64,000 nt of DNA from an uncultured bacterium (GCA_903831595.1 CAIKXY010000004.1:7152-71151); one strand, 5' to 3'. Numbered from the stretch's first letter, positions 1,576-53,200 are shown. The notes: generated from the sequence alone by a model not told the origin. Translations and numbers: made by a program.

Positions 1576-2814
1576 ATGCAAGTGAAAAAAGAAAAAACGA
1601 TTTTACACATTGATGGGGATGCATTTTTTGTGGGTGTTGAAATGGCAAAAAATCCAAAACTTAAAGGAAAGCCGGTTGTTACTGGTGAAGAAAGAGGTAT
1701 TGTTTCTGCACTTTCATATGAGGCAAAGGCACTTGGTATAAAAAGAGGCATGCCGATATTTAGGGTAAAGCGTGATTTTCCAAAAGTCACAATTCTTCCT
1801 GGAGATTATAAAGCTTATGTTCAATATTCAGGGAAAATGTTTGATATTGTCCGTAGATATGCTGATGATGTTGAGGAATATAGTATTGATGAATGTTTTG
1901 CTGACCTTACTGGAATTGAGCGTTTACATAAAATGAATTATAGGCAAATAGCTGAGCAAATTAAAAAAGAAATAAATGATGAGCTAAATATTTCCGTCTC
2001 GATTGGCCTTGCGCCGACAAAAGTACTATCAAAAGTAGCATCAAAATATGTTAAACCAAATGGCCTTACAATAATTACAAAAGATACCACTTTGGATTAT
2101 CTTTCAAAAACACCAATAGAAAAAATATGGGGTATTGGCCCAAAAACGTCTGACTACTTAAAAAGAAAAGGAATTATAACTGCAAAAGATTTTATCCAAA
2201 AAAATGTTACGTGGATTAGAGAAAATTTATCAAAGCCATACGAAATACTTTGGAATGAATTAAACGGTGAATATCTGATGAAAATTGATCCAATTACAAA
2301 GACTATTTATTCTTCAATACAAAAAACGAGGTCTTTTTATCCGGCAACTAATGAAAAAATATTTTTGCTTTCTCAGCTTTCTAAACACGTGGAAGAAGGT
2401 TGTGCAAAAGCAAGATATTATAAACTTGTTCCAAAAAAAGTTTCATTTTTTCTTAAAACAAAAGATTTTGTAATTAATGAACATCAAATTACACTTAATT
2501 CAACGACAAATGTTCCTGAAATATTAATACCATTGATTGAAGAGAATTTTAATAAAGTTTATAAGAAAAATATTTTGTATAGAACTGCAGGTGTAACTTT
2601 TAATGAACTTATTTCAGATGATATTAATCAGGGTGATTTATTTGGTAATAATAATTTGTCAAAGAAATTTGAAGTGATTCACAAACAAATTGATTCACTT
2701 GAAAATAAATTTGGCAAACATATTGTCTATCTTGCTTCCACGCAAAAAGCAATTAAAAGAAAAGTGAAGGGAACTGACTCAGATGATTTTGATAGAGATT
2801 TGTTGTTTTTGTAA
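1576..2814 (+). CDS. dinB: DNA polymerase IV (Y-family translesion polymerase)
   Basis: Starts ILHIDGDAFFVGVEM and carries conserved Y-family palm and little-finger motifs. Length 412 aa. Confidence 0.85.
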   Translation: MQVKKEKTILHIDGDAFFVGVEMAKNPKLKGKPVVTGEERGIVSALSYEAKALGIKRGMPIFRVKRDFPKVTILPGDYKAYVQYSGKMFDIVRRYADDVEEYSIDECFADLTGIERLHKMNYRQIAEQIKKEINDELNISVSIGLAPTKVLSKVASKYVKPNGLTIITKDTTLDYLSKTPIEKIWGIGPKTSDYLKRKGIITAKDFIQKNVTWIRENLSKPYEILWNELNGEYLMKIDPITKTIYSSIQKTRSFYPATNEKIFLLSQLSKHVEEGCAKARYYKLVPKKVSFFLKTKDFVINEHQITLNSTTNVPEILIPLIEENFNKVYKKNILYRTAGVTFNELISDDINQGDLFGNNNLSKKFEVIHKQIDSLENKFGKHIVYLASTQKAIKRKVKGTDSDDFDRDLLFL

Positions 2815-2841
2815 ATAATACTTATTTGATACAATACCAAT

Positions 2842-5800
2842 ATGGAAGGTGGACCAAAAAATACAAATGAATTAGAAAAACAGGCCTTGATTGATGAGGT
2901 GGTATTAAATCTTAAAGGTGGTTTTATTGATAAAGCTTATAAAATTATAAAAGATAAGCCATTTGCTGATGAAATTATTAAATTACCCATAATACAGAAA
3001 CTCGCAACTGAAGAAATGGTAAGTAAAATTGATTATTTAAAATTTAATGACGCTATTAGAGTTAAAAAAATTTATGATATTCCGGATAAAGTAATAGAGT
3101 CCAAAGATATACAACTCAGTATTAAAAAAAGTGTTTTTTCTTTATTAAGTTACTCATTGATTTTTAATGATAATTCAATTAGGGAAAATAATAAATATTT
3201 ACCTCTAATAACAAATGATGAAATTAAAAAAGAGATAATACTAAAAATTACGGATGCTATGGGTCATACTGACCTAATCAAGCAATTAGAAAATATAGCA
3301 GAAACATTTTCTATACCTGATAAAATAATTAATTCTCCGGAAGTACAAAAATCGGCAATAAAATCCATGATTTCAAATATTGATATTGGTAACTTTGATA
3401 TATTCATAAAAATAAAAAATAAATTTAATATTTCTGATGAAATTTTAAATTTAAATAAAATATACAAATCAGTAATTAGCGGAGTGAAACGTTGTATAGA
3501 ATCAAATTATAAAGATAAAGAATTAGCAGGTATTATTAAATATTTTAATGTCCCCCAAAATGAAATACAGAAAATTGCTATAAAAGCAATGATAGATACA
3601 TTTGTTAGTGACAGTAAAAATAATGAGTATAGTGAATATAAAAAAATTATAAAAAAATATTCTATATCTGATGAAATATTAAAAAAAATTAAAACACAAC
3701 ATGAAGTTTTAGATAAATTACTAAATGATGATTTTTTTCAACCAAAATTGATTCAAAAAGTTAAAGAGGCATTTTTTATTACTGATGAAACCTTAAAATC
3801 GCAAGGTGTCAAAAATATTGTTATCAATAGTATTGTGAATTCGCTTGCAGATGACAATGTTAATAGATTTATAAAAATTAAAAAAGCCTTTAAAATATCA
3901 GACAATGAACTAATATCTCCTGATATACAGCAAACTGGTTTGAAAAAAATATACGCAAATTTTTCTGATAATTATAAAGGTAGTTTTTCAGGAATTATAA
4001 ATCTAATTGAAAAATTATCTATTCCTGACGAAATATTAAATTCTAAAGAAATGCAGAGAAATGCTATTGATGGTATAGCACACAAACTTAATGATTTTAA
4101 AGAAGAAGGTAGCTCTTACATACTGAAGATAATTGATAAATTTCAAATAAATGATGACGTACTAAAATTACCAAGGATACAAAAAGCAGCAAAAAATGCT
4201 GTAATTAATTGCATATATTACTGGGATTCAAATGGGGCTTTGGAAATAATAAAAAGATTTGGATTATCAAATGAATTATTAAAATCTTCTAAAGCTCAAA
4301 AAACTATTATGACTAGTATTGGGCTTTCTCTTAGTCAAGGTTTCATTGATACTGCATTAGAAATACAAAAAAAGTTTTCAATAAGCGATGATATATTTAA
4401 ATTACCCGATATGCAAAAATATATTATTGATGGAGTCACTTATTTATTAAGTATTAATCATGGCAGAGAAATTGACCAAGTAGTAAAAATGCTAGAAAAA
4501 TTTCAAATCAATAAAGATATTTTATCTAAAATGTTAACAGAAGATATAATCAGTTTTTTAGTAAATTACGGCCGTGCTCCTGAATATGTAAAGAGAATCC
4601 AATCATTATCATTGTCTGATAAATTATTTCAGTCCACTGAAATACAAGAGGTAGCAATTCAAACTATAATTAATAAATTTAAAGATAATAAATATGTTGA
4701 TGCATTGGAAATAATAGAAAGACTAAATGTTGAGATTCCAATAGAAAAGCTATTTGCTTTGCTTCCAAAATTTAAAAAATTAATAATTGAAGTTGAAAAA
4801 ATATATCCGAAATTGAAAGAAAAAATATACAAATCAAAATCATCTGAATTAAAGTATGAACTAATAAAAATATCAATTAAAAATTCTGATACAAAAGAAT
4901 TTATTAGTGCAATTAAAGATAATCCGTTTTTAATGGATGCCGTTGATAGAAATGAACAGTATGGCCCACACCTTCTAGCTAAATACATTGAATTTGATGG
5001 ATATTCAAAAGAAAATATTTCAATGCTTTTTGATACAAAAAAGAAAATTATGTCTGAGAATCCTGATATTGACCCTGAATCAGTTGAATTTAGAATATTA
5101 ATGCAAGAATCGTTGATGGATTTCAAAGATAATAAAAAGATTATTGCTGAAATAGAGAAGTCAGGAATAAAATCACAAGAGTGGTTAAACTACGAAGAAA
5201 CAACGAATTTCACACTAAATTCAGCAGAAGGAACACTTTCTTTTGCAGAAACAGTACAAACTCCATTAAATAGAATAAAAGAAACTATTGGTAGTTATTC
5301 AAATAAGATAAAAGAAGTTCTCAAACAATACATTGAAGAACTCAAAAAAGCACAGATTCCGATTGAAGATGCATCACAAATACAGTCACAGATACAAAAG
5401 ATGGAGAGTGAGTTAGAAAAAGCCAAGGTAGAAGGTAATGAGAGAAAAGTGCAGGGGATTGAAAAAGGATTATTGGGAATGAGAAAGAAACTTGAAACAA
5501 TCAAAACTGTTTCAGTTTGGGAAAAAATACTTAGTGACATTAGTGGATTTGATATGTTGAAGAATGATATCTCTTCTGCACAAGAAAAACTTACTGATGC
5601 TGAAAACCAGATTTATTCAGCAATGTCCGAAAAAGAACCGTCTGGCAAAAAGATTACCGAACTCAAAAAGATTTTGGGCGATTCAAAACGTGATTTCCAG
5701 GATAAATTTATGATGCTTGGAAAAAGAATTGCTAATTTCAAAGAAAGTTTGCTTGATAGACTATCATCTCTTGGCAAAGAACGTGCAGAATCATTAATCC

Positions 5801-6996
5801 AAGAAATAGAACAAGGACTAGCTGAGCAATTTGCTCACTATGATACCGATAAAGATACATTGCAGAACTTATTTGGTGAAAAGATGGAAAAAGATAAAGA
5901 AGTACTTGAATCAAGACCTATGAGTATTTTTGTTTGGGCAAGAAACCCAGATGTAGACCTATATCAAGGTAATTATTCACCTTGTTGTATTTGTATAGAT
6001 AGCGCACATATGGGAGCAGAATCAACAATAGCAGACTACGCTACTGATCTTGGAGTACAGATTGTAAATATCTGGGATGAAACTACAAATAAACCGGTAA
6101 CGGCTGCTTGGTGTTGGATAGGTGAAGATGATGCAGGTAAGCCAGCACTTGTAGTGGACAATGTCGAGTCAAATACTTTGTATAGTTCAAATTATTCTGA
6201 ACAACTCTCAAAAGAGTTACTAGATTATATAAAAGGATACGGAAAAGCTATTGGCATAAATAAAGTAGTACTTGGTAAAGCAAACAACGATTTGCCTAGT
6301 GCAAGTATAATGTCAAAATTGAAAGATAACGAAAAAACATTTACTAAACTTGGTGGTGCAAACCGTGCAGATAGTTATTTCCTTGAAGCTGAAGATGAAA
6401 ATGTAAAAGTAATATGGGATAAAGCAGAAAAAATTGAAAAGAAATCAAAAACTGAAGAAAAAGAAAGAATAAAATTTAATGATATTAGTATAAAATCTAT
6501 TGAAAATACTGATTTTGATTCTATAAAAAAACTAGAGAAAATTATTTACAGTGATGATTTAGCAATAGGTCAAGAAATGATAGAGGAATTGAAACACAGT
6601 AATGGTATGGAATATTCATTTATTGTGGAGGGTGTTCCGGAAGGTAAAACTGAAGTAGAACCTATAGGATATTTGGTTGCCACAGAAGATGAAACAGATG
6701 AGGGTGAACCATGTGTATATTTGGATGACATAGCTGTATTACCAGAAGCACAAAAACAAGGAATCGGTTGGAAAATGTTCAAAAATATAATTGATATATT
6801 AAAAACGAAAGCACAAGCCAAAAACCAACCTATACTCTTTGATATGCACTTGAGAAATTCATCAAGGGAGATGCTGGACAAACACATTAATGACCTAAAA
6901 GCTCTTGGAGTTGAAATGACTGAAGAAGCATTCGTACCTGACCACTATGATGAAGGAGATGATGCGGTGTATAGGGTATATAAGGTTAGTATATAA
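2842..6996 (+). CDS. large multidomain protein: about 15 tandem ~38-40-aa helical repeats, a coiled-coil segment, a Cys-containing domain, and a C-terminal GNAT N-acetyltransferase domain
   Basis: 1,384-aa uninterrupted ORF. Recurrent units resemble F.ISDEIL..P.IQK.AI. The coiled-coil region spans aa 780-960. The C-terminal region contains a GNAT motif A (LPEAQKQGIGWKMFKNII). No signal peptide or TM helix. Confidence 0.6.
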   Translation: MEGGPKNTNELEKQALIDEVVLNLKGGFIDKAYKIIKDKPFADEIIKLPIIQKLATEEMVSKIDYLKFNDAIRVKKIYDIPDKVIESKDIQLSIKKSVFSLLSYSLIFNDNSIRENNKYLPLITNDEIKKEIILKITDAMGHTDLIKQLENIAETFSIPDKIINSPEVQKSAIKSMISNIDIGNFDIFIKIKNKFNISDEILNLNKIYKSVISGVKRCIESNYKDKELAGIIKYFNVPQNEIQKIAIKAMIDTFVSDSKNNEYSEYKKIIKKYSISDEILKKIKTQHEVLDKLLNDDFFQPKLIQKVKEAFFITDETLKSQGVKNIVINSIVNSLADDNVNRFIKIKKAFKISDNELISPDIQQTGLKKIYANFSDNYKGSFSGIINLIEKLSIPDEILNSKEMQRNAIDGIAHKLNDFKEEGSSYILKIIDKFQINDDVLKLPRIQKAAKNAVINCIYYWDSNGALEIIKRFGLSNELLKSSKAQKTIMTSIGLSLSQGFIDTALEIQKKFSISDDIFKLPDMQKYIIDGVTYLLSINHGREIDQVVKMLEKFQINKDILSKMLTEDIISFLVNYGRAPEYVKRIQSLSLSDKLFQSTEIQEVAIQTIINKFKDNKYVDALEIIERLNVEIPIEKLFALLPKFKKLIIEVEKIYPKLKEKIYKSKSSELKYELIKISIKNSDTKEFISAIKDNPFLMDAVDRNEQYGPHLLAKYIEFDGYSKENISMLFDTKKKIMSENPDIDPESVEFRILMQESLMDFKDNKKIIAEIEKSGIKSQEWLNYEETTNFTLNSAEGTLSFAETVQTPLNRIKETIGSYSNKIKEVLKQYIEELKKAQIPIEDASQIQSQIQKMESELEKAKVEGNERKVQGIEKGLLGMRKKLETIKTVSVWEKILSDISGFDMLKNDISSAQEKLTDAENQIYSAMSEKEPSGKKITELKKILGDSKRDFQDKFMMLGKRIANFKESLLDRLSSLGKERAESLIQEIEQGLAEQFAHYDTDKDTLQNLFGEKMEKDKEVLESRPMSIFVWARNPDVDLYQGNYSPCCICIDSAHMGAESTIADYATDLGVQIVNIWDETTNKPVTAAWCWIGEDDAGKPALVVDNVESNTLYSSNYSEQLSKELLDYIKGYGKAIGINKVVLGKANNDLPSASIMSKLKDNEKTFTKLGGANRADSYFLEAEDENVKVIWDKAEKIEKKSKTEEKERIKFNDISIKSIENTDFDSIKKLEKIIYSDDLAIGQEMIEELKHSNGMEYSFIVEGVPEGKTEVEPIGYLVATEDETDEGEPCVYLDDIAVLPEAQKQGIGWKMFKNIIDILKTKAQAKNQPILFDMHLRNSSREMLDKHINDLKALGVEMTEEAFVPDHYDEGDDAVYRVYKVSI

Positions 6997-7055
6997 ATTT
7001 ATAACTTTTAATTCCAATAAATCATTTTTTTACGCATCTCGAGCGTCGCTCGACT

Positions 7056-7129
7056 TGGCTGGGGAACAGGGACTCGAACCCCGATACCATGCGCCAAAGG
7101 CATGTGTCCTACCATTAGACGATTCCCCA
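7056..7129 (-). tRNA. tRNA-Gln (anticodon TTG)
   Basis: Reverse complement TGGGGAATCGTCTAATGGTAGGAC...CTTTGGC...GGTTCGAGTCCCTGTTCCCCAGCCA folds as a cloverleaf. Anticodon loop is CTTTGGC and the 3' CCA is encoded. Confidence 0.85.
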
Positions 7130-8805: not shown

Positions 8806-9390
8806 TTGATGAATAAATCTGACATAGAAATTATTATTAAATATCTAAATGGCGACAAAAATAGTTTTACTGAAATTGTAAATCGCTATTTAAAGGTAAT
8901 ATATAATTTTATATATAGGTTTGTTGGTAATGAAAAAATTGCAGAGGATATTACCCAAGAAACTTTTTTAAAAGCATGGAAAAATCTGAAGAAATTTGAT
9001 GCAACAAAAAGTTTTAAAACTTGGGTTTTTTCTATTGCAAAAAACACAGCTATTGATTATTTACGAAAAAAGAAAGATATTCCAATTTCAATGTTTGATA
9101 ATGATAATGGTGAAAATATTATAGAAGACACACTTACTGATGAAGAATTAAAAGCTGATGAAGTATACATAATGGCAGAAAATAAAAAACAGGTTGAGAA
9201 TGTTTTAACTAAATTAACACCAATTCAAAAAGAAGTTGTGATATTAAAATATGTAAGTGAACTGTCTTTGTCAGAAGTCTCAGAAATAATGAATATACCA
9301 AGAGAAACAGTAAAAAGTCACCACAGAAGGGCTTTAATAAAAATGAAGAAATTACTTGAAGAAAAACATGCACCCAAATTATCAAAATGA
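8806..9390 (+). CDS. RNA polymerase sigma factor, ECF (sigma-70 family group 4)
   Basis: Region 2 (ITQETFLKAWKNLKKF) and region 4 HTH (LSLSEVSEIMNIPRETVKSHHRRALIKMKK). Confidence 0.85.
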   Translation: MMNKSDIEIIIKYLNGDKNSFTEIVNRYLKVIYNFIYRFVGNEKIAEDITQETFLKAWKNLKKFDATKSFKTWVFSIAKNTAIDYLRKKKDIPISMFDNDNGENIIEDTLTDEELKADEVYIMAENKKQVENVLTKLTPIQKEVVILKYVSELSLSEVSEIMNIPRETVKSHHRRALIKMKKLLEEKHAPKLSK

Positions 9391-9406
9391 GCGTATAAAC
9401 AAATGT

Positions 9407-9808
9407 ATGGATAGCAAAAATCAATTATTTAATATTATAGAGCCTAAAAATCAGCTAAAAAAATCAGTTATTGGCAAGATTAAGGCGTTAGAAATGAAAA
9501 AAACTATTAATAATGTGGTTTTTAGCTCATTAATTTCGCTTGCTTCGATAGCTTCGATTGTTTTTTTTATAATAAATATTATTAATGACGCAAGCAAATC
9601 TGGGCTATCACAATATTTATCACTCATATTTTCTGACGGAAAGTTAATTGCTTCTTATTGGCAAACATATGTTTTGTCTGTTGTAGAGTCACTACCAATA
9701 ATTCCAATCGCAATAGTTGTTGCTTCATTTTCAATTTTTGTATGGTCACTAAATAAGTTCTTAGAAAATATTAGAAATACAAAGTCGGTATTTTATAAAA
9801 TTAATTAA
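9407..9808 (+). CDS. putative membrane anti-sigma factor (hypothetical, 2 TM helices)
   Basis: ORF directly after the ECF sigma gene. The start was moved to the first ATG after the sigma stop (MDSKNQLF...). No recognisable domain; the anti-sigma role is inferred only from position. Confidence 0.3.
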   Translation: MDSKNQLFNIIEPKNQLKKSVIGKIKALEMKKTINNVVFSSLISLASIASIVFFIINIINDASKSGLSQYLSLIFSDGKLIASYWQTYVLSVVESLPIIPIAIVVASFSIFVWSLNKFLENIRNTKSVFYKIN

Positions 9809-9821
9809 TTATAAATATTAT

Positions 9822-10310
9822 ATGCAAGAAATAAAAACGGTCTTAAAAAATTCAAAAGTAAGATTAGCAATATGCATTTTTGTTAGTGTTTTTTTCGCTC
9901 TTATAATCTTTCAAGCTGGAGTTTTTGTTGGTTTTAAAAAAGCAAGTTTTTCTTTTAGGACAGGTGAACAATGCTTTCGCCAAGTGAACGGCAGGTTAAA
10001 CGGAGCATTTGTGGGAATTGGAAAGGATGATTTTCCAAATTCACATGGTGCAATTGGTAAAATACTTTCAATTAAACTTCCTATAATTGTAGTTTCTGAT
10101 AGAGATAATGTTGAAAAAACAATAATTGTTGGTACAAGTACTGATATAAGACAGATGAGAAATCAATTGGGTGCAAAAGATTTAAGAGTTAATGATTTTA
10201 TTACTGTAATTGGTGAACCAAATACAAATGCTGAAATAGAAGCTAAACTTATAAGATTGATGCCTACACCAGAAATTTTACTAAATAATAGTACAAGTAC
10301 AATTAAATAA
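9822..10310 (+). CDS. hypothetical membrane-anchored protein
   Basis: 162 aa with an N-terminal TM helix and no recognised motif. Confidence 0.35.
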   Translation: MQEIKTVLKNSKVRLAICIFVSVFFALIIFQAGVFVGFKKASFSFRTGEQCFRQVNGRLNGAFVGIGKDDFPNSHGAIGKILSIKLPIIVVSDRDNVEKTIIVGTSTDIRQMRNQLGAKDLRVNDFITVIGEPNTNAEIEAKLIRLMPTPEILLNNSTSTIK

Positions 10311-10312
10311 AT

Positions 10313-12232
10313 ATGAAAAACTTTACTAAAAAAATAATAATATTTACAAAATTACACAAGTTTTGGTCAGCTATAATTAGTATTGCAATAATTTTTGTAT
10401 TATATTTTTTATACACAATAATTTTCCCTGCAAGCACAACTGTTCAATATACTTTTAGTCGAGTAAAAAAGGGGGACTTAGTTATAAGCGTTGCTGGTTC
10501 TGGACAAGTTTCAACTCTTAGTAAAGTTTCTATCAAACCAAACACGACTGGCCAAACTCAAACGCTAGGTCAAATTATTTCTGTAAAAGTTCAAAATGGA
10601 GATTCTGTAAAAGCCGGACAAATTGTGGCTATTCTTGATGGGAAAAACGCTTTACAAACATTAAATCAGGCAAAAGCGAGCGTTACAAGCGCGCAGGCTA
10701 GTTACGATAAACTTGTTAATGGTCTCACCGATTTTCAATTATTATCACTAAATAATGCCTTAACATCTGCTCAAATATCATTAGATAATACTAAACAAAA
10801 TATTTTAATTAAACTAAAAAATGCATATACATTAGCAGCAAACAGTGTATATTTAAATACTGATCAATTTATTATTGATTCTTCGAGTAACAATCCGAAT
10901 ATTTTTGTCGAAGGAGTAAATTTTACAGATCAACAATTACAAAATAATGTTAACCAAGGTAGATATAATATTGGCTCTATTTTAGATAATTGGAAAAAAA
11001 TTATTGATTCTCAGTCAACTTCAGATAATTTGGTTTTAAATTTAAATACTGCAATATCAAATTTAAATGTTATTAGAAGTTACTTTGATGATATGACAAT
11101 GTTGTTTGGGGTGAATAGTGTTGGTTTAGATTTAGCTTCCCAATCAGCTATTGATTCTGATAAAAATTTATCAGCAAGTGCAAGAAGCGCGATGGATTCA
11201 TCAATTAGTGACTTAACTTCAGTACTTCAATCATATAATAGTGCTATATTTTCTCTACAACAAGCAAAAGATAATTTAGCAATCCAACAAAAACCACCTT
11301 TAGCAGATGATTTGGCCGTATCACAAGCCAACCTTGATAATGCAAAAGCAAATTTGTCTAACGCACAAACAGCTTATGATAGCAGAATTATTACTGCACC
11401 ATTTGATGGGCAAATTGGTGGGCTCACTGCAAGTATAGGACAACAAGTTTCATCATCAGACTCATTAGCCACACTTATTACTGCTGAAAAAGTTGTTAAT
11501 GTTACGCTTAATGAAGTTGATGCAGCAAAAGTATCTGCTGGAAATCCTGTAAATATAACTTTTGATTCACTACCAAACGTCTCACTTACTGGAAGCGTAA
11601 GTTACATTGACCCACTTGGCACAGTAACACAGGGAGTTGTTAGTTATTCTGTACAAATAAAAATGGATTCACAAAATGATCAAATTAAAACAGGAATGAC
11701 TGCAACTGTAAGTATAGTCACTACCACACACGCTAATACACTAATCATTCCAAATTCTGCAATAACTACTACTGGTGGCAAAAAATATGTTCTTGTGGCT
11801 GATACTTCTTCATCAACAATGCCAAACTTTAGTGGAAACTTTAACAATGGTTCATCAACAGACGCATTTAGTACTTCATCAAGAAGATATTTTGCTTCAT
11901 CTACTTTTGCATCTTCAGTGGGAACAAGCACAGGAAGACAGTTTAGAAATAGTGCAAGTAGTTCAAGATCATCCCAAGGAATTACAATGCAATTCCCAGT
12001 TACACAGGTTGAGATAACTACAGGTCTTTCAAACAATACAACCACTGAAGTACTTTCAGGACTAAATGAAGGACAATTGGTTGTTACAAAAAAGACAACG
12101 GTTAGTGGAACTACAACAAAAACAACAGCTTCGACTGCAACAACAAATACCAGGGGTGGATTTGGCGGAGGGTTTGGTGGCGGTGCAGCAGGTGCAGTGG
12201 GTGGACTCGGTAGAACTCTCGGCGGAAACTAA
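10313..12232 (+). CDS. HlyD/MacA-family periplasmic adaptor subunit with a long S/T/G-rich C-terminal tail
   Basis: N-terminal TM helix, coiled-coil hairpin region, and a lipoyl/beta-barrel motif (RIITAPFDGQIGGL). The C-terminal ~140 aa are low-complexity Ser/Thr/Gly and end in GGFGGGFGGG. Confidence 0.7.
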   Translation: MKNFTKKIIIFTKLHKFWSAIISIAIIFVLYFLYTIIFPASTTVQYTFSRVKKGDLVISVAGSGQVSTLSKVSIKPNTTGQTQTLGQIISVKVQNGDSVKAGQIVAILDGKNALQTLNQAKASVTSAQASYDKLVNGLTDFQLLSLNNALTSAQISLDNTKQNILIKLKNAYTLAANSVYLNTDQFIIDSSSNNPNIFVEGVNFTDQQLQNNVNQGRYNIGSILDNWKKIIDSQSTSDNLVLNLNTAISNLNVIRSYFDDMTMLFGVNSVGLDLASQSAIDSDKNLSASARSAMDSSISDLTSVLQSYNSAIFSLQQAKDNLAIQQKPPLADDLAVSQANLDNAKANLSNAQTAYDSRIITAPFDGQIGGLTASIGQQVSSSDSLATLITAEKVVNVTLNEVDAAKVSAGNPVNITFDSLPNVSLTGSVSYIDPLGTVTQGVVSYSVQIKMDSQNDQIKTGMTATVSIVTTTHANTLIIPNSAITTTGGKKYVLVADTSSSTMPNFSGNFNNGSSTDAFSTSSRRYFASSTFASSVGTSTGRQFRNSASSSRSSQGITMQFPVTQVEITTGLSNNTTTEVLSGLNEGQLVVTKKTTVSGTTTKTTASTATTNTRGGFGGGFGGGAAGAVGGLGRTLGGN

Positions 12233-12244
12233 AACACATTAAAG

Positions 12245-12946
12245 ATGATTGAATGCAAAAATATTAAAAAAACTTATATAAATGGGGAAGCAGAAACTCA
12301 AGCTCTTAAAGGTGTCACTTTCACAATTAAAGATGGGGAATTTGTCGCCATTATGGGTCCATCTGGTTCAGGTAAGTCAACGCTGATGCATATTCTTGGT
12401 GCTCTTGATACACCAACTGGTGGACAATATTTTCTTGATGGTGAAGATGTTTCAAAACTTACAGATGATGAACTTGCTGATATCCGAGGGAATAAAATAG
12501 GTTTTGTTTTTCAATCATTTAATCTTTTACCTAGGTCAGAAGTCATACGAAATGTAATTTTACCTTTAGTATATTTAAAAGTTCCACCAGAGGAAAGAGA
12601 AAAAAGAGCAAAAGAGGCATTAGCATCTGCTGGCCTTGAAGAAAATAGATGGCATCATCTTTCAAATCAGCTTTCCGGAGGGCAAATTCAACGTGTTGCC
12701 ATAGCGCGTGCGCTTGTAAATGACCCTTCACTTATTATGGCGGACGAACCAACTGGAAATCTTGATACGAGAACTGGTGAAATTGTTTTGAAAACATTTC
12801 AAGATTTAAATAAAAAAGAAGGACACACAATTATTCTTATTACGCATGAACTCGACGTTGCAGAACACGCCGACAGAATTATTCATATCAGAGATGGATT
12901 AATTGTAAGTGATGAGATAAATAAAAATAAAAGAATTGTAAATTAA
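12245..12946 (+). CDS. MacB/LolD-type ABC transporter ATP-binding protein
   Basis: Walker A GPSGSGKST, signature LSGGQIQRVAIARAL, Walker B IMADEPT. Confidence 0.85.
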   Translation: MIECKNIKKTYINGEAETQALKGVTFTIKDGEFVAIMGPSGSGKSTLMHILGALDTPTGGQYFLDGEDVSKLTDDELADIRGNKIGFVFQSFNLLPRSEVIRNVILPLVYLKVPPEEREKRAKEALASAGLEENRWHHLSNQLSGGQIQRVAIARALVNDPSLIMADEPTGNLDTRTGEIVLKTFQDLNKKEGHTIILITHELDVAEHADRIIHIRDGLIVSDEINKNKRIVN

Positions 12947-12950
12947 ACGT

Positions 12951-14174
12951 ATGACAATAAATGATATTTTAAAAGAAACTTCATCAGGATTATTATCGAA
13001 CAAAGTTCGTACAGGCCTTACTATGCTTGGTATTGTCATTGGTATTGCTTCTGTAATTGCTATGCTTGGTATTGGTAATGGCGCAACAAATTCTATTCAA
13101 GCAAGAATTGAATCTATTGGTGCAAACCTTGTTGTCATTTCTCCTGGAGCTCCGAGCACACCTGGAAGCCAGGTTAGAGCAAGTAGAGGTTCAGCAAACA
13201 CATTAACTATGGCTGATGTTGCAGCGCTAGAAAGTGGAATCACAAGTGCAAAAGCAGTTGCGCCGTCTGTCACATCAAGGTTACAAGTTGTGGCTGGGGG
13301 CATGAATACTAACACTTCTATTATTGGAACTACGCCAGCTTATACAGACATAAGAGATGTTAAGATTGACTCAGGAACTTTTTTTTCTGAAGACCAAGTT
13401 ACACAACTTGCAAGAGTTGCAGTATTAGGACCAACTACGAGAGATGATTTGTTTGGTACAGGTGTTGATACCATCGGCCAAAGTATAAGAATAAATGGAA
13501 ATATTTTTACAGTGATAGGGATAACTGTGGCAAAAGGCGGCTCAGGTGGAAATAGCACAGATGATGTTGTTTATATTCCAATTACAGTCGCTCAACAATT
13601 TTTCACCGGTAATCAATATGTTTCTTCTATAAATATTTCCGCACAAACTTCTGACCTTGTTACTGATGTTCAAAATCAGGCAACAGATATTTTACTTGCA
13701 AGACATAATATTACAGACCCAACAAAAGCAGATTTTAGCACAATGAATCAGTCAGATATGCTTGCAACTGCCTCTTCTATCACAGGGACTATGACAGCAC
13801 TTTTAGCTGCCATAGCTGGCATATCTTTACTCGTCGGAGGAATTGGTATTATGAATATGATGCTCACAACCGTGACAGAAAGGACACGGGAAATTGGTTT
13901 GAGAAAAGCTGTTGGTGCAAAAAAAAGAGATATCAGAGTACAATTTTTAACAGAATCAGTAATGCTGACAGCTATCGGTGGAATAATTGGGATTATTTTT
14001 GGTATTGGTATTGCCTGGGTAATAACTCTGACAGGGCTTCTTACTGCACAAGTCTCAGTAATGTCTGTGATATTATCTTTCGGGGTTTCAGCAATAATTG
14101 GGATTATTTTTGGATATTATCCAGCGGCACGAGCTTCAGATTTAAATCCTATTGATGCATTAAGGTATGAATAA
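12951..14174 (+). CDS. ABC transporter permease, FtsX-like/MacB transmembrane domain
   Basis: N-terminal TM helix, a large periplasmic domain, and a C-terminal FtsX-type 3-TM bundle (TRTREIGLRKAVGAKKRDI). Confidence 0.8.
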   Translation: MTINDILKETSSGLLSNKVRTGLTMLGIVIGIASVIAMLGIGNGATNSIQARIESIGANLVVISPGAPSTPGSQVRASRGSANTLTMADVAALESGITSAKAVAPSVTSRLQVVAGGMNTNTSIIGTTPAYTDIRDVKIDSGTFFSEDQVTQLARVAVLGPTTRDDLFGTGVDTIGQSIRINGNIFTVIGITVAKGGSGGNSTDDVVYIPITVAQQFFTGNQYVSSINISAQTSDLVTDVQNQATDILLARHNITDPTKADFSTMNQSDMLATASSITGTMTALLAAIAGISLLVGGIGIMNMMLTTVTERTREIGLRKAVGAKKRDIRVQFLTESVMLTAIGGIIGIIFGIGIAWVITLTGLLTAQVSVMSVILSFGVSAIIGIIFGYYPAARASDLNPIDALRYE

Positions 14175-47271: not shown

Positions 47272-50200
47272 CTAATTATATAATAAATTTTTTCTTTTAT
47301 CACCCTTACCACGACGAATAGTAAAAATGGTGCCAATATAAACCAACGCTACAAAAATACCTAATAATAAAATGTTTTGTAAGTTAAGTATTTTTGCTAC
47401 AGAAAATATCGCCTTTAATTCAAGATTCATAAATACCCCTTTGCTCTCATCCACCTGGAATGGATCTCCTTTGTAATCTACGTACCCGTCAAGATGTGCT
47501 GTCATATAATATATACCAGCAGGGACAAGGAATGAGTATCTGCCTGTTACATCCGTCGTCTGTGGATTGGTTTGTCTATAATCTTTTGCTGGCCATAATT
47601 CATAATTTTTTGTCTTTGGATTTTGCCAATAAATAGATACTTCAACGTTATTCAAACGAGTTTCTTTTCCATCTGATTGTTTTTCATAAACATACCCCTC
47701 TGGGTCCACCAAAACGACCATGCTTATTTTTTCTGGAGCTTTTGACGCTGCTTTGAAATTGACGACTGTCCTCAATTCATATTGACCAATTGCAAGTGGT
47801 GATGCAACATCTGCTGTCCAAATACCATCGACATTTTCTTTATAATTAAATTTGGTCAAAACAAGATCTGTTTCACTTGTAATTCCTGAGTCATTTGTTT
47901 GAGTACCCTGACTTTCACCAATTATTGTACTTGCGACTGTTGCGACTTGTGAAAGAGTAGATTTCTTTGAAACAGCATTTGATTTGAATATAATATAACC
48001 TTGAATATTTTTTGCTGGTGCTGTTGGTTTTACAATAAGCTTCATTGTCTGGCCTTGGATTGTATTTAGGGTTTGTAATGCCAAACCATCATTTCCGATT
48101 GAAAGTTTTACATTCAAGTCTATCTTTTCATCTTGCGTTCTTGCAAAAACTATACCTGTAGGTATTTTAGCTTTTTGTGTATCAGATAAGCTAGCTATTG
48201 GTAAAGTATTTGAAGATAGTGTAGCTGCTTCCGTAATACCTGGTAATGATATAGGATTTGCATTCAACTTTAATATGGAATTCATATTATTTACTCCAAT
48301 TTTACTCAAAGCCGAACTTACTTCAGGAAACTTAGAAACAATATCCGTGTAATCACTTGGGAGTTTGGTATTAATTAAATCTGTCAAAGAAGAAGGAGTT
48401 ATAATTTTCCACGAATTTAATATTGCAAATGGCGCGACGGAAGGGAGTGTTGTCTTAACTTCAGTAAGTGCAAGTGGTTCTATTTTCTTTGGTGGAAGAA
48501 TTACCGTAAGAATATCAGCAGTTGTACTTGCTATGTTTCCGACAATACTTTGCGTTGTATTTGATATACTATTTATTATAGAAACAGTAGAAAGAGTAAT
48601 TGATTGGGACACTGCTGGTGAAGAAATTCCTTGTGCATCTAGAAATTTAGCATAAACATAATATTTTCCGTCTGGACATGTTGTACTATTTTGACATAAA
48701 TCATAAGTGGTTGTTGTTATATTATTTGCGGAATATGGAATGGTAACAGTATTTGTGAAATCTGGATTATTGGAAAAGATTATTGCAGTTGCACTACCAA
48801 GCTGATCTGTAGAAAATTGCAAAGTTACTTTTCTGTCATCTGTTGTCCATGCTCCACCGTTTATAGATACGGAATATCTTGGAGAGGATGAACCACCTCC
48901 AGATATAGAACTGAGTGATGAGCTTGCAGTTGTATAATTTTTTCTTCCTGATGGTACTGCATATGTCATATGTGTAGCAGAGGATGACGTGTCTTTATTA
49001 CCAAGATAATCCTGACATGCTATATAGACATTCTTAGGTCCTGGAGTCCCAAGAGTAGGTAGTATACAAGACATTTGTATTCCATTATTTACAGAACAAG
49101 ATACTCCAGAGGACATTTGATCATACGATTGCGCTGTATCGGAAACTACAAGACGACAATCTCCTACTTTACTCAAAGTAAATGTGACTAGATTTCCAGT
49201 ATAAATATTTGAATTATCAACAGGACTAATGTTTGAAATTGTAGCTAGTGTTTTGTCTATATTAATTATTCTAGAAACTATTGTTTGAATATTTCCAGCA
49301 TTATCAATAGAAGAATATCTGAAATAATTTGTACCTCCATTTGAAACAACTACTGATGCAACATAGCTAATGCTTGGTGTACAGGTATTAGCGTTATCAA
49401 TACAATAACTGGTAGTTGCAATTCCGGATGTTGTATCAGCTGGATTTAAGGTAATTGTAATATTACTATTTGTCCATGCGCTGTATGTATAAGGTTGGGT
49501 TTGACTTGTCACAGCTGTATCTGTTGTCATTGGTGCAACAGTATCTATCTTTACAATCCTACTGACCGTGGTTTGTATATTGTTAGCATTATCTTCTGAT
49601 GCATAACGGAAATATGAAATACCTTCAAATGGTATAACTACTGGAGCAGAATAATCTGTACCATCAGCTGGAGAGCATGTGTTATTTGTATCAACACAAT
49701 ATCTAGTCCATAAAATTCCAGAACTTGGTGCAGGATCATTTGGTGTCAAAGTAATTGTCTGATTGCCATTTACCCAAATATTATTGTTTGTAAAATTATC
49801 AGATGTATTTGGTGCTGTTTTGTCTACATGTCTATGTCCTGTTATTATTTGTCCTGAATTACCAGCGATATCAACTGGGAAATATTTCAAAACATAATCT
49901 CCTTCTGATGTAATAGTAAACTGCCAGCTTGATGATGCCTCTACATATTGTGATGCAAGACTTGGATTTGTATTATCAGTTGTATAGTAAATTCTGTAAC
50001 AACCAGAACCAACTACTCCATCATCACAGGTGAAAGTAACTGTGCTTGCATTTGCAAAAGTAGATGTTGCAACAGTTACTGTTGGTAATTGATTATCAAA
50101 CTTCAAGTCATTTGAATCTGTATATATACTGGTAGTGTTTCCTGCAAAATCATTTGCTTTATATCTCAGTACAGAATCACCTTCTGTAGAGTACGTAAAT

Positions 50201-53200
50201 GCAAATGATGTACCAGATGTTGCATAATTTGTATCTGGAGTACATGGAGTAGTTGAAGCTAAATATGTACAATAATAAACTTGATTACAACCGGATGTAC
50301 TATCAGTACAACTCAAAGTGACAACAATTGGACTTGTATGCCAATTGTTATCAGCATTAGATGATACTGATGATGGTGCTACTGTATCCCATGTCAAACT
50401 AAATGTAGATGAAGCTAAATTACCTGCATTGTCTGTTGCAAGAAGTTTAATTACATATGTACCATCTGTATTAGCAGAAATTGTTGTGTTTGCTGATGTT
50501 GATGAACCAAAAGTAATTGTCCCTGGTCCAGAAACTTTTGACCATAGATACGATGCTATTCCTGAAGTGAGGTCACTAGAGCTAGCACTTGTTGTAAATG
50601 TAGAGCTTGAAGTCATGTTTGAACCAGCACTTACAACTGGAGATGTCGTGTCCCAAATTAGGTTGAATGTTGATGAAGAAGAGTTACCTACATTATCAGT
50701 CACAAGAAGTTTAATTACATATGTACCATCTGTGTTTGCAGAAATTGTTGTGTTTGCTGATGTTGATGAACCAAAAGTAATTGTCCCTGGTCCAGAAACT
50801 TTTGACCATAGATACGATGCTATTCCTGAAGTTACATCACTTGCAGTGGCCGTTGTTGTAAATGTAGAATTTGCAGTTTTGTTTGCACCGGCATTTACTG
50901 TTGGTGGTACAGTATCAACAGTAAATGTACTAGTGGCTGCATTTGCATTAGATGTTGTATTACTATAAGCATCAGTTGCTCTTACATATATCGTATGACT
51001 TCCATCCGCAAGCGTAGAAGCAGTGCAACTAAATCCTTCCGTAGAAGAATTAAAAGCTCCATCAGCTGCAGTACAGTTTATCCAGCTGCCACTCGTTCCA
51101 TCGATTTGATATTGAACATTCGAAACTATTCCTGGATTTGAAAGTGTCCCTGCATCAGTAGATGTTCCGTAAATAGTTGGCGTAGTATTACTCGTGAAAG
51201 CAGCGACACTACCTAAATTAATTGTTGGTGGAGTAATATCAAAAGTCCAGTTTGTATTTCCGCCACCATCAACACAACCAGTGGTACAAAGAAATGCGGT
51301 AGAACTTAAATTTGTTGAGCTTGCGACGTTTAGATATGATAGATTGGTTGTACCAGCTCCGGTTTGGACAAGATTAAAAGTATTTGCAAGAAAATATGAA
51401 CTAGTTGGTGGCGTAAAGTTTGAAGTCCAACGAGCAACACCTTTTGATATTCTAAATTCATCTAAATGTCCATCTAAATAATAAGGACTTCCTGTATAAT
51501 AACCTTCCCACCCAATACGAAGTGGAGTAGATGGTGTATATATAGTGGCTGTGAAAGTGGTACCTCCAACATTTTGTAACACCCCATTAACAAAGAAATA
51601 TATCTTTCCACCTGTTCTTGAAATAGCAATATGGTACCAAGTATTGGTAGAAAAAGCATAAGATACACCTAGTGTGGTAGCAGAGCTTCCTGTTGTAGTG
51701 TACGCAAATTGAAGATGTGTTCCATCTTGCATATTTACATTAAAAGAAAAATCATTAGCACTCACCTCTTGCCCATAAAATGTTACAAAATGGTAAGAAC
51801 CGCCAGTAGAATTTAATCTAACTCTAAAATCTATAGTAAAATCACCCGACCCTAAATTAAAATCGGAACTTGCTGGAGTACTTATATATTTATTTACTGG
51901 AAAATTTCCCGACGCTCCTCCGAATACACTTGTAGAAGTATCAATAGTGCTACTATAAGATGTAAAAGTGTGAAGACCAGATGAACTATCTGTAAAGGTA
52001 GAGGAATTGTTTGCTCCATCCATATGCAACATTAATTTTGTATAACTATCTATTCCACCTGGAATTGGACTAATACTTAAAAGATTATTGAGAGCACCAT
52101 TTAGTGTAAGGTTATTTGTTATTGTAGTTGTATTTAAAGAATCAAGAAGTAAAGATGTTGCTGCTGATGTTGTTTTGGTCAAATTATTAAAAGAATTTGC
52201 ACCAATAATTGATTGTGCTGTTCCATTCAAATTTACACTTCCACTATTACTTGAAAAGGTACCTCCGGAATTTGTCCAGTTGCCACCAACATTAAGCGTA
52301 CCAGATGGAGCTGTAAATGTTCCAGCAGAAAGTGTTAAATTTCCTGGGATTGTTAAATTACTAGTTCCTACAGTGAATGTCCCTCCGGAACCATTAATAG
52401 TCAAATTATTATAAGACCAGTCTTTGATTGCTCTTGTACTTGTAGTCGCCGTATAAGTCACAGTTGAACTAGTAAGGGTTGGCGTGGCAAGTGCACTACC
52501 ACCAACAGCAGTTTCATCCCCAGTAAGTTTAAGATTTGCACTAACATTAAATACGGTCGGAGAAAATTGATACCCAGCTAAATTCAAAGTTCCACTTCCA
52601 GATACTGTAGTAGTTGCAGAATATTGATTTCCTACAAGTGTAACAGTGTTTGAATCAATAGTTGCAATATCATATGGACCAGGATACGCGACGCCTTCTA
52701 TTGTTCCTGATGTTCCCCATGTGGTACTCGCCTGCCAATTACCATTTGCGACGTCATTAAATGTTGTTGGTGCAACAGAACCTCCGTCATTAATGGTCCA
52801 TCCTTTTGCAACAATTGCTGCACGAGCAGTTGCTGGTGTGCCAGTATAATATTGCGATGAACCACCAGTAAAGGTTACGGGGCTTTTTAATGTTTGTGTA
52901 GACCAACCTTGTAAAATTTTACTATAATTTATCGTTGATAATGTATCCCCAGTAAACATGTTTGACATATTTGTAGAACTTGAAACAACCCAATTACCCA
53001 AATTTTGGTTAAAAGCAGAGTCAAATCCAAACATATAATTCATGGTAGTAACTTTGGCTGTATTCCATCCAGAAATATTTTGATTAAATGCACTGTAGTA
53101 AAACATCTGTGACATGTCAGTAACATTCGAAGTATTCCAATTACCTATTGAAGAACTAGCGGCATTGTTAAAAACACCACCAGCACCAGAAAACATGCCA

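Follow-up and report, generated by a model that had tools for sequence, protein, structure and literature searches.

A modelled GNAT-fold domain with an invariant Cys-Cys pair defines an unannotated protein family of Patescibacteria

In a 64,000-nucleotide stretch of DNA from an uncultured bacterium (CAIKXY010000004.1:7152-71151, hereafter the window), the gene at positions 2842 to 6996 encodes a 1384-residue protein with four parts: from N- to C-terminus, an array of tandem repeats, an all-helical region, a divergent domain modelled as a GNAT fold that we refer to as CC-GNAT, and a canonical GNAT acetyltransferase domain (GNAT2). This is the domain order that an earlier reading of the sequence alone (the sequence-only reading) had given, and it was correct. 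That reading did not recognise the combination of a repeat scaffold and an acetyltransferase; we found that the architecture is not a single case but recurs in hundreds of proteins from Patescibacteria, and it therefore represents a family that lacks annotation. No match in Pfam, NCBIfam, PDB sequences or PADLOC covered the repeats, the helical region or CC-GNAT, and our literature search found no description of the CC-GNAT family. The source genome is likely that of a member of the Patescibacteria (candidate phyla radiation). With some reserve, we favour the view that the protein is a cytoplasmic acyltransferase acting on a macromolecule, most likely a protein, by a composite mechanism in which two active sites are carried on a recruiting scaffold. 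The gene and its parts, in window coordinates, are as follows.

2842-6996, + strand: complete open reading frame (ORF) of 1384 residues, stop codon included, from ORF analysis; the matching protein record is P0001
2917-4683, + strand: repeat region (residues 26-614), 13 strong and 2 weak tandem units of about 39 residues each, from motif scan, hidden Markov model (HMM) and BLAST
4762-5241, + strand: 'mid' helical domain (residues 641-800) with the motifs PFL..A...N.R.G.KLL, EFR..MQE.L and WLNY..E..F.L, conserved in 106 aligned family members
5242-5841, + strand: long-helix bundle (residues 801-1000), the 'coiled coil' of the sequence-only reading, from an AlphaFold2 (AF2) model
5842-6426, + strand: CC-GNAT (residues 1001-1195), the family-defining domain with a divergent, predicted GNAT fold, from an AF2 model and structural comparison
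5983-5988, + strand: invariant Cys1048-Cys1049 within D-L-Y-x-G-N-Y-x-x-C-C, present in 100% of the sequences in an alignment of 140 and in another of 46
6157-6168, + strand: invariant D1106-N1107-V-E1109 in strand b4, from conservation and model secondary structure
6487-6993, + strand: canonical GNAT acetyltransferase domain GNAT2 (residues 1216-1384), from Pfam PF00583 and profile search
6751-6768, + strand: motif A of GNAT2, QKQGIG (residues 1304-1309, Q1304 to G1309), from an alignment of 13 domains

CC-GNAT and the family it defines

The family came into view only through an exhaustive phmmer search with residues 985-1384 against 1.84 billion representative proteins, which matched 477 proteins at E<=1e-3 and 127 at E<=1e-30. 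A word-index search with the full-length sequence returned just the protein itself and one other, P0002, because low-complexity words filled its candidate list. Segment mapping gave a constant core consisting of the mid helical domain (residues 641-800), the long-helix segment (801-1000) and the Cys-containing domain (1001-1195). As judged by these sequence comparisons, CC-GNAT together with the helical region that precedes it is the core of a family of at least 477 clusters at 50% identity. Over residues 641-1384, identity to the query is 40-52% in the closest full-length homologs. P0002 has the same domain order, with weak colinear profile matches to the CC motif, D-N-I-E and GNAT2; BLAST found no match between the C-terminal halves of the two proteins.

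An AF2 model of residues 996-1197, built from a 35-sequence alignment (predicted local distance difference test (pLDDT) score 83.4; predicted template modelling (pTM) score 0.83), gave a mixed alpha/beta GNAT topology similar to that of solved GNATs, and the GNAT toxins TacT, AtaT and KacT were among its Foldseek matches, at fold level only. The domain is far less visible to sequence methods: in the query it has no Pfam or NCBIfam match, the 46 aligned members share no consistent Pfam family, and the best match in a PDB profile search had an E-value of 0.086, which is not significant. Comparison of CC-GNAT with the query's own GNAT2 by hhalign was not significant either (probability 0.2), with b4-a3 aligned in the expected topological register. 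In that non-significant alignment, the D-N-x-E strand lines up with the GNAT2 strand before motif A, and E-S-N-T-L-Y-S-S-N-Y of CC-GNAT stands opposite A-Q-K-Q-G-I-G, which indicates that CC-GNAT is without the pyrophosphate-binding loop. Indeed, the loop pattern Q/R-x-x-G-x-G/A is absent: the segment after b4 is free of glycine and has the family consensus E-a-n-t-x-Y-s. Because the profile and motif A tests failed and the domain is a GNAT by fold only, we regard CC-GNAT as a new divergent family within the GNAT superfamily.

About 30 residues of CC-GNAT, mostly polar, are invariant or nearly so (invariant or >90% in the alignments of 140 and of 46 sequences). They include R1034, D1039, G1043-N1044-Y1045, C1048-C1049, D1065-Y1066, D1069, Q1073, D1079, W1090, D1106-N1107-x-E1109, G1145, N1149-D1150, K1169, G1171 and Y1179-x-L-E1182. 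On the secondary structure of the model they map to the b1-a2 segment, to strand b4, just after b5, and to the C-terminal end, positions that we infer to correspond to the lining of the b4-b5 cleft of GNATs. The b1-a2 segment, which contains the CC pair, stands where GNATs usually have the a1-a2 acceptor flap.

For this Cys-containing segment, with its clustered Cys and His, the sequence-only reading had offered either a degenerate second acyltransferase fold or a thiol enzyme. The first idea agrees with the model as far as the fold goes, but the domain is not degenerate, being the best-conserved and family-defining part. The Cys segment is also there as described, but only C1048 and C1049 are invariant, and C1051 and H1056 are not. 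The thiol-enzyme option, including a papain-like reading of Q-x5-C-C, was ruled out by the GNAT-fold model and by the absence of a conserved His. A resemblance of the 'CC' to ATE1 was likewise considered and found unsupported, as structures of ATE1, Bpt and L/F-transferase were absent from the top structural matches.

GNAT2 is much more easily recognised. Its match to PF00583 (Acetyltransf_1) at residues 1268-1323 (E 1.5e-7, 32.1 bits against a cut-off of 20.7) is the sole Pfam domain above threshold in the protein, and with QKQGIG in place the earlier claim of a C-terminal GNAT with motif A was borne out. The Q, G and G of motif A are invariant in the 13 aligned domains, and the Q/R-x-x-G-x-G/A loop follows b4 as expected. 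Among solved structures, the GNAT2 family profile matched SSAT2 (2bei) best (E 1.5e-4), followed by GNA1, RimI and Naa10, and its homologs carry precomputed PF00583/PF13508 matches. By its sequence signature, GNAT2 is an ordinary member of the GNAT superfamily. The intact motif A of GNAT2 and the many invariant polar residues of CC-GNAT look enzyme-like, and they therefore argue against a rival view in which the protein is chiefly a structural element or scaffold, either cytoskeleton-like or a platform for assembly, and its GNAT folds are binding modules only; we consider such a role very improbable.

Most family proteins stop directly after CC-GNAT, with the second GNAT neither fused nor adjacent. 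A core followed by a C-terminal canonical GNAT, as in the query, was found in P0003-P0012, in P0153-P0162 and at loci L008-L022; every close relative with a complete end has GNAT2 either fused (L008-L022, of which L010 ends at a contig edge) or encoded in an overlapping adjacent gene (L004/L018). In a metagenome-assembled genome (MAG) from Hainich groundwater, the core-only protein P0163 (592 residues) is followed by a separate 206-residue GNAT2 gene with a 56-nt overlap (L004 6466-8809, L005 5776-8119); this pair could reflect a split gene, a frameshift or a sequencing error in an architecture that is otherwise fused. A C-terminal GNAT is also present in a distant, HEAT-type branch (P0142, L040). 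As GNAT2 is fused, split or absent across relatives, its association with the core is recurrent but dispensable.

This distribution bears on a comparison with tandem GNATs. MshD, VipF/Lpg0103, GlmA and CBG likewise have two consecutive GNAT folds, the C-terminal one canonical and the N-terminal one off-consensus, and in the characterised tandem GNATs activity resides in the C-terminal domain only (PMC10936415). By analogy, only GNAT2 would be catalytic in the query, and CC-GNAT would be a non-catalytic pseudo-GNAT with a role in shaping the substrate cleft or in the allosteric binding of a cofactor. The query does have two adjacent GNAT folds in one chain (residues 1001-1195 and 1216-1384), the first without the Q/R-x-x-G-x-G loop. 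However, CC-GNAT is not a degenerate duplicate found only beside an active fold: in most members it occurs without a second GNAT, fused or adjacent, and it is the best conserved part of the family (invariant C-C, D-N-x-E, N-D, R and K), which is unexpected for a degenerate partner. Unlike in tandem GNATs, then, the N-terminal fold here is conserved, apparently ancestral and usually solitary; it has no sequence-detectable relation to GNAT2 in the hhalign comparison above, it carries the invariant Cys-Cys insert, and the GNAT pair comes after a repeat array and helical bundle that together span about 1000 residues. We therefore think it unlikely that CC-GNAT is a silent partner of this kind.

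We assigned the family's taxonomy from source names and by scanning a collection with one genome for each GTDB species. Among the Patescibacteria it occurs in Buchanan-, Falkow-, Moran-, Pacei-, Parcu-, Nealson-, Woese- and Gracilibacteria and in Minisyncoccia, and the best match to the query in that collection, to which the window's own genome does not belong, comes from a MAG of Candidatus Buchananbacteria, with 78% identity over the CC domain. Melainabacteria (Gastranaerophilales and Vampirovibrionales) have members at about 30% identity, some within ORFs of about 4000 residues or more and with two copies. A small number of records carry the names of other phyla; all of these are MAGs, with unverified labels, and those assigned to Bdellovibrionales, Gammaproteobacteria or Planctomycetia may be mis-binned Patescibacteria. 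Some genomes encode paralogs, for example L029/L030 and L068/L074/L086. One member of 1418 residues comes from a cultured patescibacterium, Minisyncoccus archaeiphilus PMX.108 (NZ_AP038758.1:908736-921206; L031 2242-6498). It has an N-terminal S-adenosylmethionine (SAM)-dependent methyltransferase domain at residues 107-246, and neither detectable 39-residue repeats nor GNAT2.

Several individual loci deserve mention. At L007 (379-4400), an 838-residue ORF without a Pfam match lies directly before the 465-residue P0155, which consists of the end of the bundle, CC-GNAT and GNAT2; together they are probably a split or interrupted full-length gene. L037 (4306-6591), from a Candidatus Gracilibacteria MAG, has a homologous ORF whose length rises from 170 residues under genetic code 11 to 762 under code 25. 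These lengths fit recoding of UGA as Gly in this lineage, which would explain some of the short 'fragment' matches. In Melainabacteria/Gastranaerophilales MAGs (L066, L074, L080, L067 and L082), CC-GNAT lies within giant ORFs of 2200 to >4000 residues, with two copies each in L066 and L074; a Pfam scan of the giant proteins of L066 and L080 found no informative partner domain.

Helical region and N-terminal repeats

AF2 modelled residues 641-1000 (18 sequences; pLDDT 81.4, pTM 0.48) as all-helical, with short helices up to residue 783 and six long helices of 19-43 residues each at 801-999. The loop at residues 784-797 is modelled with low confidence yet conserved in sequence. A coiled-coil or charged segment had been placed at about residues 780-960 by the sequence-only reading. 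Its long-helical character holds in the model, but the segment belongs to a family-conserved module and is not a low-complexity or generic charged linker.

A motif scan identified 13 repeat units with a consensus of roughly F-x-I/L-S/P-D-E-I/V-L-x-S-x-E-I/V-Q-x-A-x-x-x-x-I, 12 of which (from residue 156 on) are consecutive at a spacing of 35-42 residues. An HMM trained on 12 units recovered 13 strong units (E 1e-12 to 1e-19) and two weaker N-terminal ones. This confirms the array of about 15 tandem helical-type repeats proposed earlier, but it extends over about 590 residues (to about residue 614) rather than about 700, and residues 641-800 form a separate conserved helical domain outside it. 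The same HMM detected about 20 units in P0002, an independent and unrelated-looking protein of 1921 residues. BLAST aligned the two proteins in several shifted registers, as expected for tandem repeats. The 39-residue period and the two amphipathic segments per unit suggest a helix-hairpin repeat.

Pfam finds HEAT repeats N-terminal to CC-GNAT in the distant members P0139, P0142, P0145 and P0151. The helix-hairpin repeat suggested by the query's 39-residue period and paired amphipathic segments would be another point in common with HEAT proteins. However, neither the query nor P0002 has a match to any Pfam repeat family at E<=1, and hhalign of the query repeats against the HEAT units of P0142 gave a probability of 0. 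Lacking any profile similarity to those units, the query repeats were not accepted as HEAT. The presence of Pfam HEAT at the same position in distant members makes a scaffold role for the query repeats plausible by analogy.

The N-terminal module varies across the family, being made of 39-residue repeats, HEAT repeats or a SAM methyltransferase domain, and the number of detectable 39-residue repeats ranges from 0 to 17 units. Against the closest full-length homologs, the query repeats are 20-32% identical over partial stretches or have no detectable similarity. The array thus appears from these comparisons to be fast-evolving and variable in copy number. The contrast with the core, which is 40-52% identical in the same homologs, supports a reading of the family as a constant core with a variable scaffold.

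Gene, neighbourhood and delivery

The ORF begins at the first ATG downstream of an in-frame stop codon and is real as first proposed, and metagenome assemblies at NCBI and ENA contain an identical protein (P0001), encoded on contigs as long as 172 kb. We found no signal peptide, as the sequence-only reading had stated, nor any transmembrane segment (maximum 19-residue Kyte-Doolittle mean 1.15). The protein is most likely a soluble, cytoplasmic, multidomain protein, as judged from its sequence. The gene lies between two others.

1576-2814, + strand: dinB (DNA polymerase IV), upstream of the repeat-GNAT gene
7056-7129, - strand: tRNA-Gln(UUG), the downstream boundary of the repeat-GNAT gene

Co-transcription with dinB is possible because the two genes are on the same strand and 27 nt apart; dinB is not conserved next to homologs. 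Another neighbour in the window is an ABC-2 transporter. At homolog loci the neighbours vary (Mur ligases, glycosyltransferases, ribosomal protein genes and M14 peptidases), and among the loci compared there was no conserved gene neighbourhood and no window neighbour was seen again beside a homolog. Unlike the GNAT toxins TacT, AtaT and KacT, which are about 170 residues long with an adjacent antitoxin gene, the query has 1384 residues, dinB and a tRNA gene as neighbours, and no match in a PADLOC scan.

These features are relevant to the idea that the protein is a host-directed effector, delivered by an episymbiotic or predatory bacterium, with repeats that would bind host targets and GNAT folds that would modify them. 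Patescibacteria, among them the cultured archaeal parasite Minisyncoccus archaeiphilus, account for the bulk of the family, and Vampirovibrionales have members as well; the family's fast-evolving, copy-number-variable repeats, within-genome paralogs and unconserved neighbourhood would suit an effector, and VipF, a tandem-GNAT effector of Legionella, provides a precedent (PMC10936415). However, we found no secretion signal and no secretion-system or toxin-immunity context around the gene, which sits between the housekeeping genes dinB and tRNA-Gln. The family also extends to Gastranaerophilales, which are regarded as free-living gut bacteria. On balance, delivery to a host seems doubtful.

Two loci recall the cell envelope: the L003 homolog is flanked by two Mur ligase genes, and the gene for P0002 is surrounded by glycosyltransferase and Wzy_C genes. 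This would suit a CC-GNAT that is not an acyl-CoA transferase, but an aminoacyl-tRNA- or peptide-dependent transferase (similar to Fem or L/F-transferase) or an enzyme modifying cell-envelope precursors. The lack of a CoA pyrophosphate loop in CC-GNAT points the same way, since to our knowledge tRNA-dependent GNAT-fold transferases likewise lack it. Even so, we rate such an activity as improbable.

A pattern scan for promoters and terminators around the gene stayed at the background level of AT-rich DNA. Between the stop codon and the convergent tRNA-Gln gene there is a short G+C-rich inverted repeat (window 7035-7055; ctcgagcg tc gctcgac), which may be a terminator-like hairpin that the scan missed. 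The G+C content of window 2001-6000 is 0.25-0.29, against 0.29-0.38 in the remaining window; this may merely reflect the Lys/Ile/Asn-rich repeats.

Elsewhere in the window, the 2906-residue ORF at 47272-55992 (- strand) resembles a giant surface-type protein: it contains five DUF285 stretches and two K319L-like PKD stretches, and its matches to Y_Y_Y and Big_3_4 fall below threshold. On the + strand at 8806-14174, a short sigma-70-family factor of 194 residues, with regions 2 and 4 only, heads a series of genes. Two ORFs without a Pfam match follow it (9356-9808 and 9822-10310) and could be an anti-sigma pair; next come an HlyD-like adaptor, an ABC ATPase and a MacB/FtsX permease.

Proposed function and its meaning for the family

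In the mechanism that we tentatively favour, that of a cytoplasmic protein acyltransferase, the repeat array and helical bundle would act as a recruiting scaffold for a macromolecular substrate, in all likelihood a protein, and GNAT2 would move acetyl from acetyl-coenzyme A (acetyl-CoA) onto an amine of that substrate. CC-GNAT would be a second, ancestral and independent catalytic centre using the usual GNAT cleft. Because the pyrophosphate-binding loop is absent, CC-GNAT would either bind its acyl donor non-canonically or take the acyl group from something other than a CoA thioester, and a Cys thioester may serve as the intermediate. The core function would lie in the helical module and CC-GNAT, with the repeats and GNAT2 as lineage-specific additions for targeting and a second modification. 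As most relatives have CC-GNAT without GNAT2, CC-GNAT must work on its own. The fusion or adjacency of GNAT2 in close relatives, and its presence in the HEAT branch, argue for a functional link between the two domains. The exchange of the N-terminal scaffold for HEAT repeats or a methyltransferase fits as well, since a targeting or accessory module is expected to vary.

Several points weigh against this mechanism. For both GNAT folds, catalysis, ligand and substrate are predictions, from sequence for GNAT2 and from sequence and model for CC-GNAT, and the 'solenoid scaffold' of residues 26-614 is proposed from sequence periodicity and analogy. The CC loop between b1 and a2 is a low-confidence part of the model (pLDDT <50 at residues 1045-1047), and CC-GNAT, having no motif A, could be non-catalytic despite its conservation. 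The substrate may be RNA, cell-wall precursors or small molecules instead of protein. Finally, because the neighbourhood varies among homologs, genomic context gives no clue to function or pathway.

A bolder version of the same idea makes CC-GNAT a novel enzymatic lineage within the GNAT superfamily that has given up the CoA pyrophosphate loop and in which Cys-Cys acts as a covalent thioester acyl carrier or relay. Together with the helical bundle, it would be a lineage-specific protein-modification machine of Patescibacteria and Melainabacteria, cooperating in the query's subfamily with the fused acetyltransferase, possibly on host or self proteins during episymbiosis. We regard this as possible but rather unlikely.

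Known systems offer partial parallels for a scaffold joined to a GNAT. N-terminal acetyltransferases with helical auxiliary subunits are one (NatA, Naa10 with Naa15; NatD/Naa40, Naa80 and Naa60; bacterial RimI). Another is Pat/PatZ, a bacterial protein lysine acetyltransferase with a large N-terminal domain and a C-terminal GNAT. Like Pat/PatZ, the query is a large cytoplasmic multidomain protein with a canonical C-terminal GNAT and a presumed protein substrate. However, the N-terminal part of Pat is an NDP-forming acyl-CoA-synthetase-like domain, which Pfam and NCBIfam did not detect in the query, and Pat has neither CC-GNAT nor a repeat array. For the closest architectural analogues (MshD, VipF, NatA Naa15/Naa10 and Pat), homology is limited to the fold.

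The genomes of Patescibacteria are very small, and most proteins specific to these lineages are without an assigned function. The gene studied here occupies 4.2 kb, and database labels for its family read only "hypothetical" or generic "GNAT". Neither CC-GNAT nor the repeats are in Pfam, and recognition of the core as a divergent GNAT fold provides a domain definition for annotation. If the protein is an ordinary protein acetyltransferase, better annotation would be the main gain. The invariant Cys-Cys/D-N-x-E/N-D constellation also gives a concrete enzymatic hypothesis for CC-GNAT, and function is experimentally accessible because a member is found in the cultured Minisyncoccus archaeiphilus. 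Should CC-GNAT have non-canonical chemistry or host targets, the family would be relevant to self-regulation in ultrasmall episymbionts or to their manipulation of host cells.

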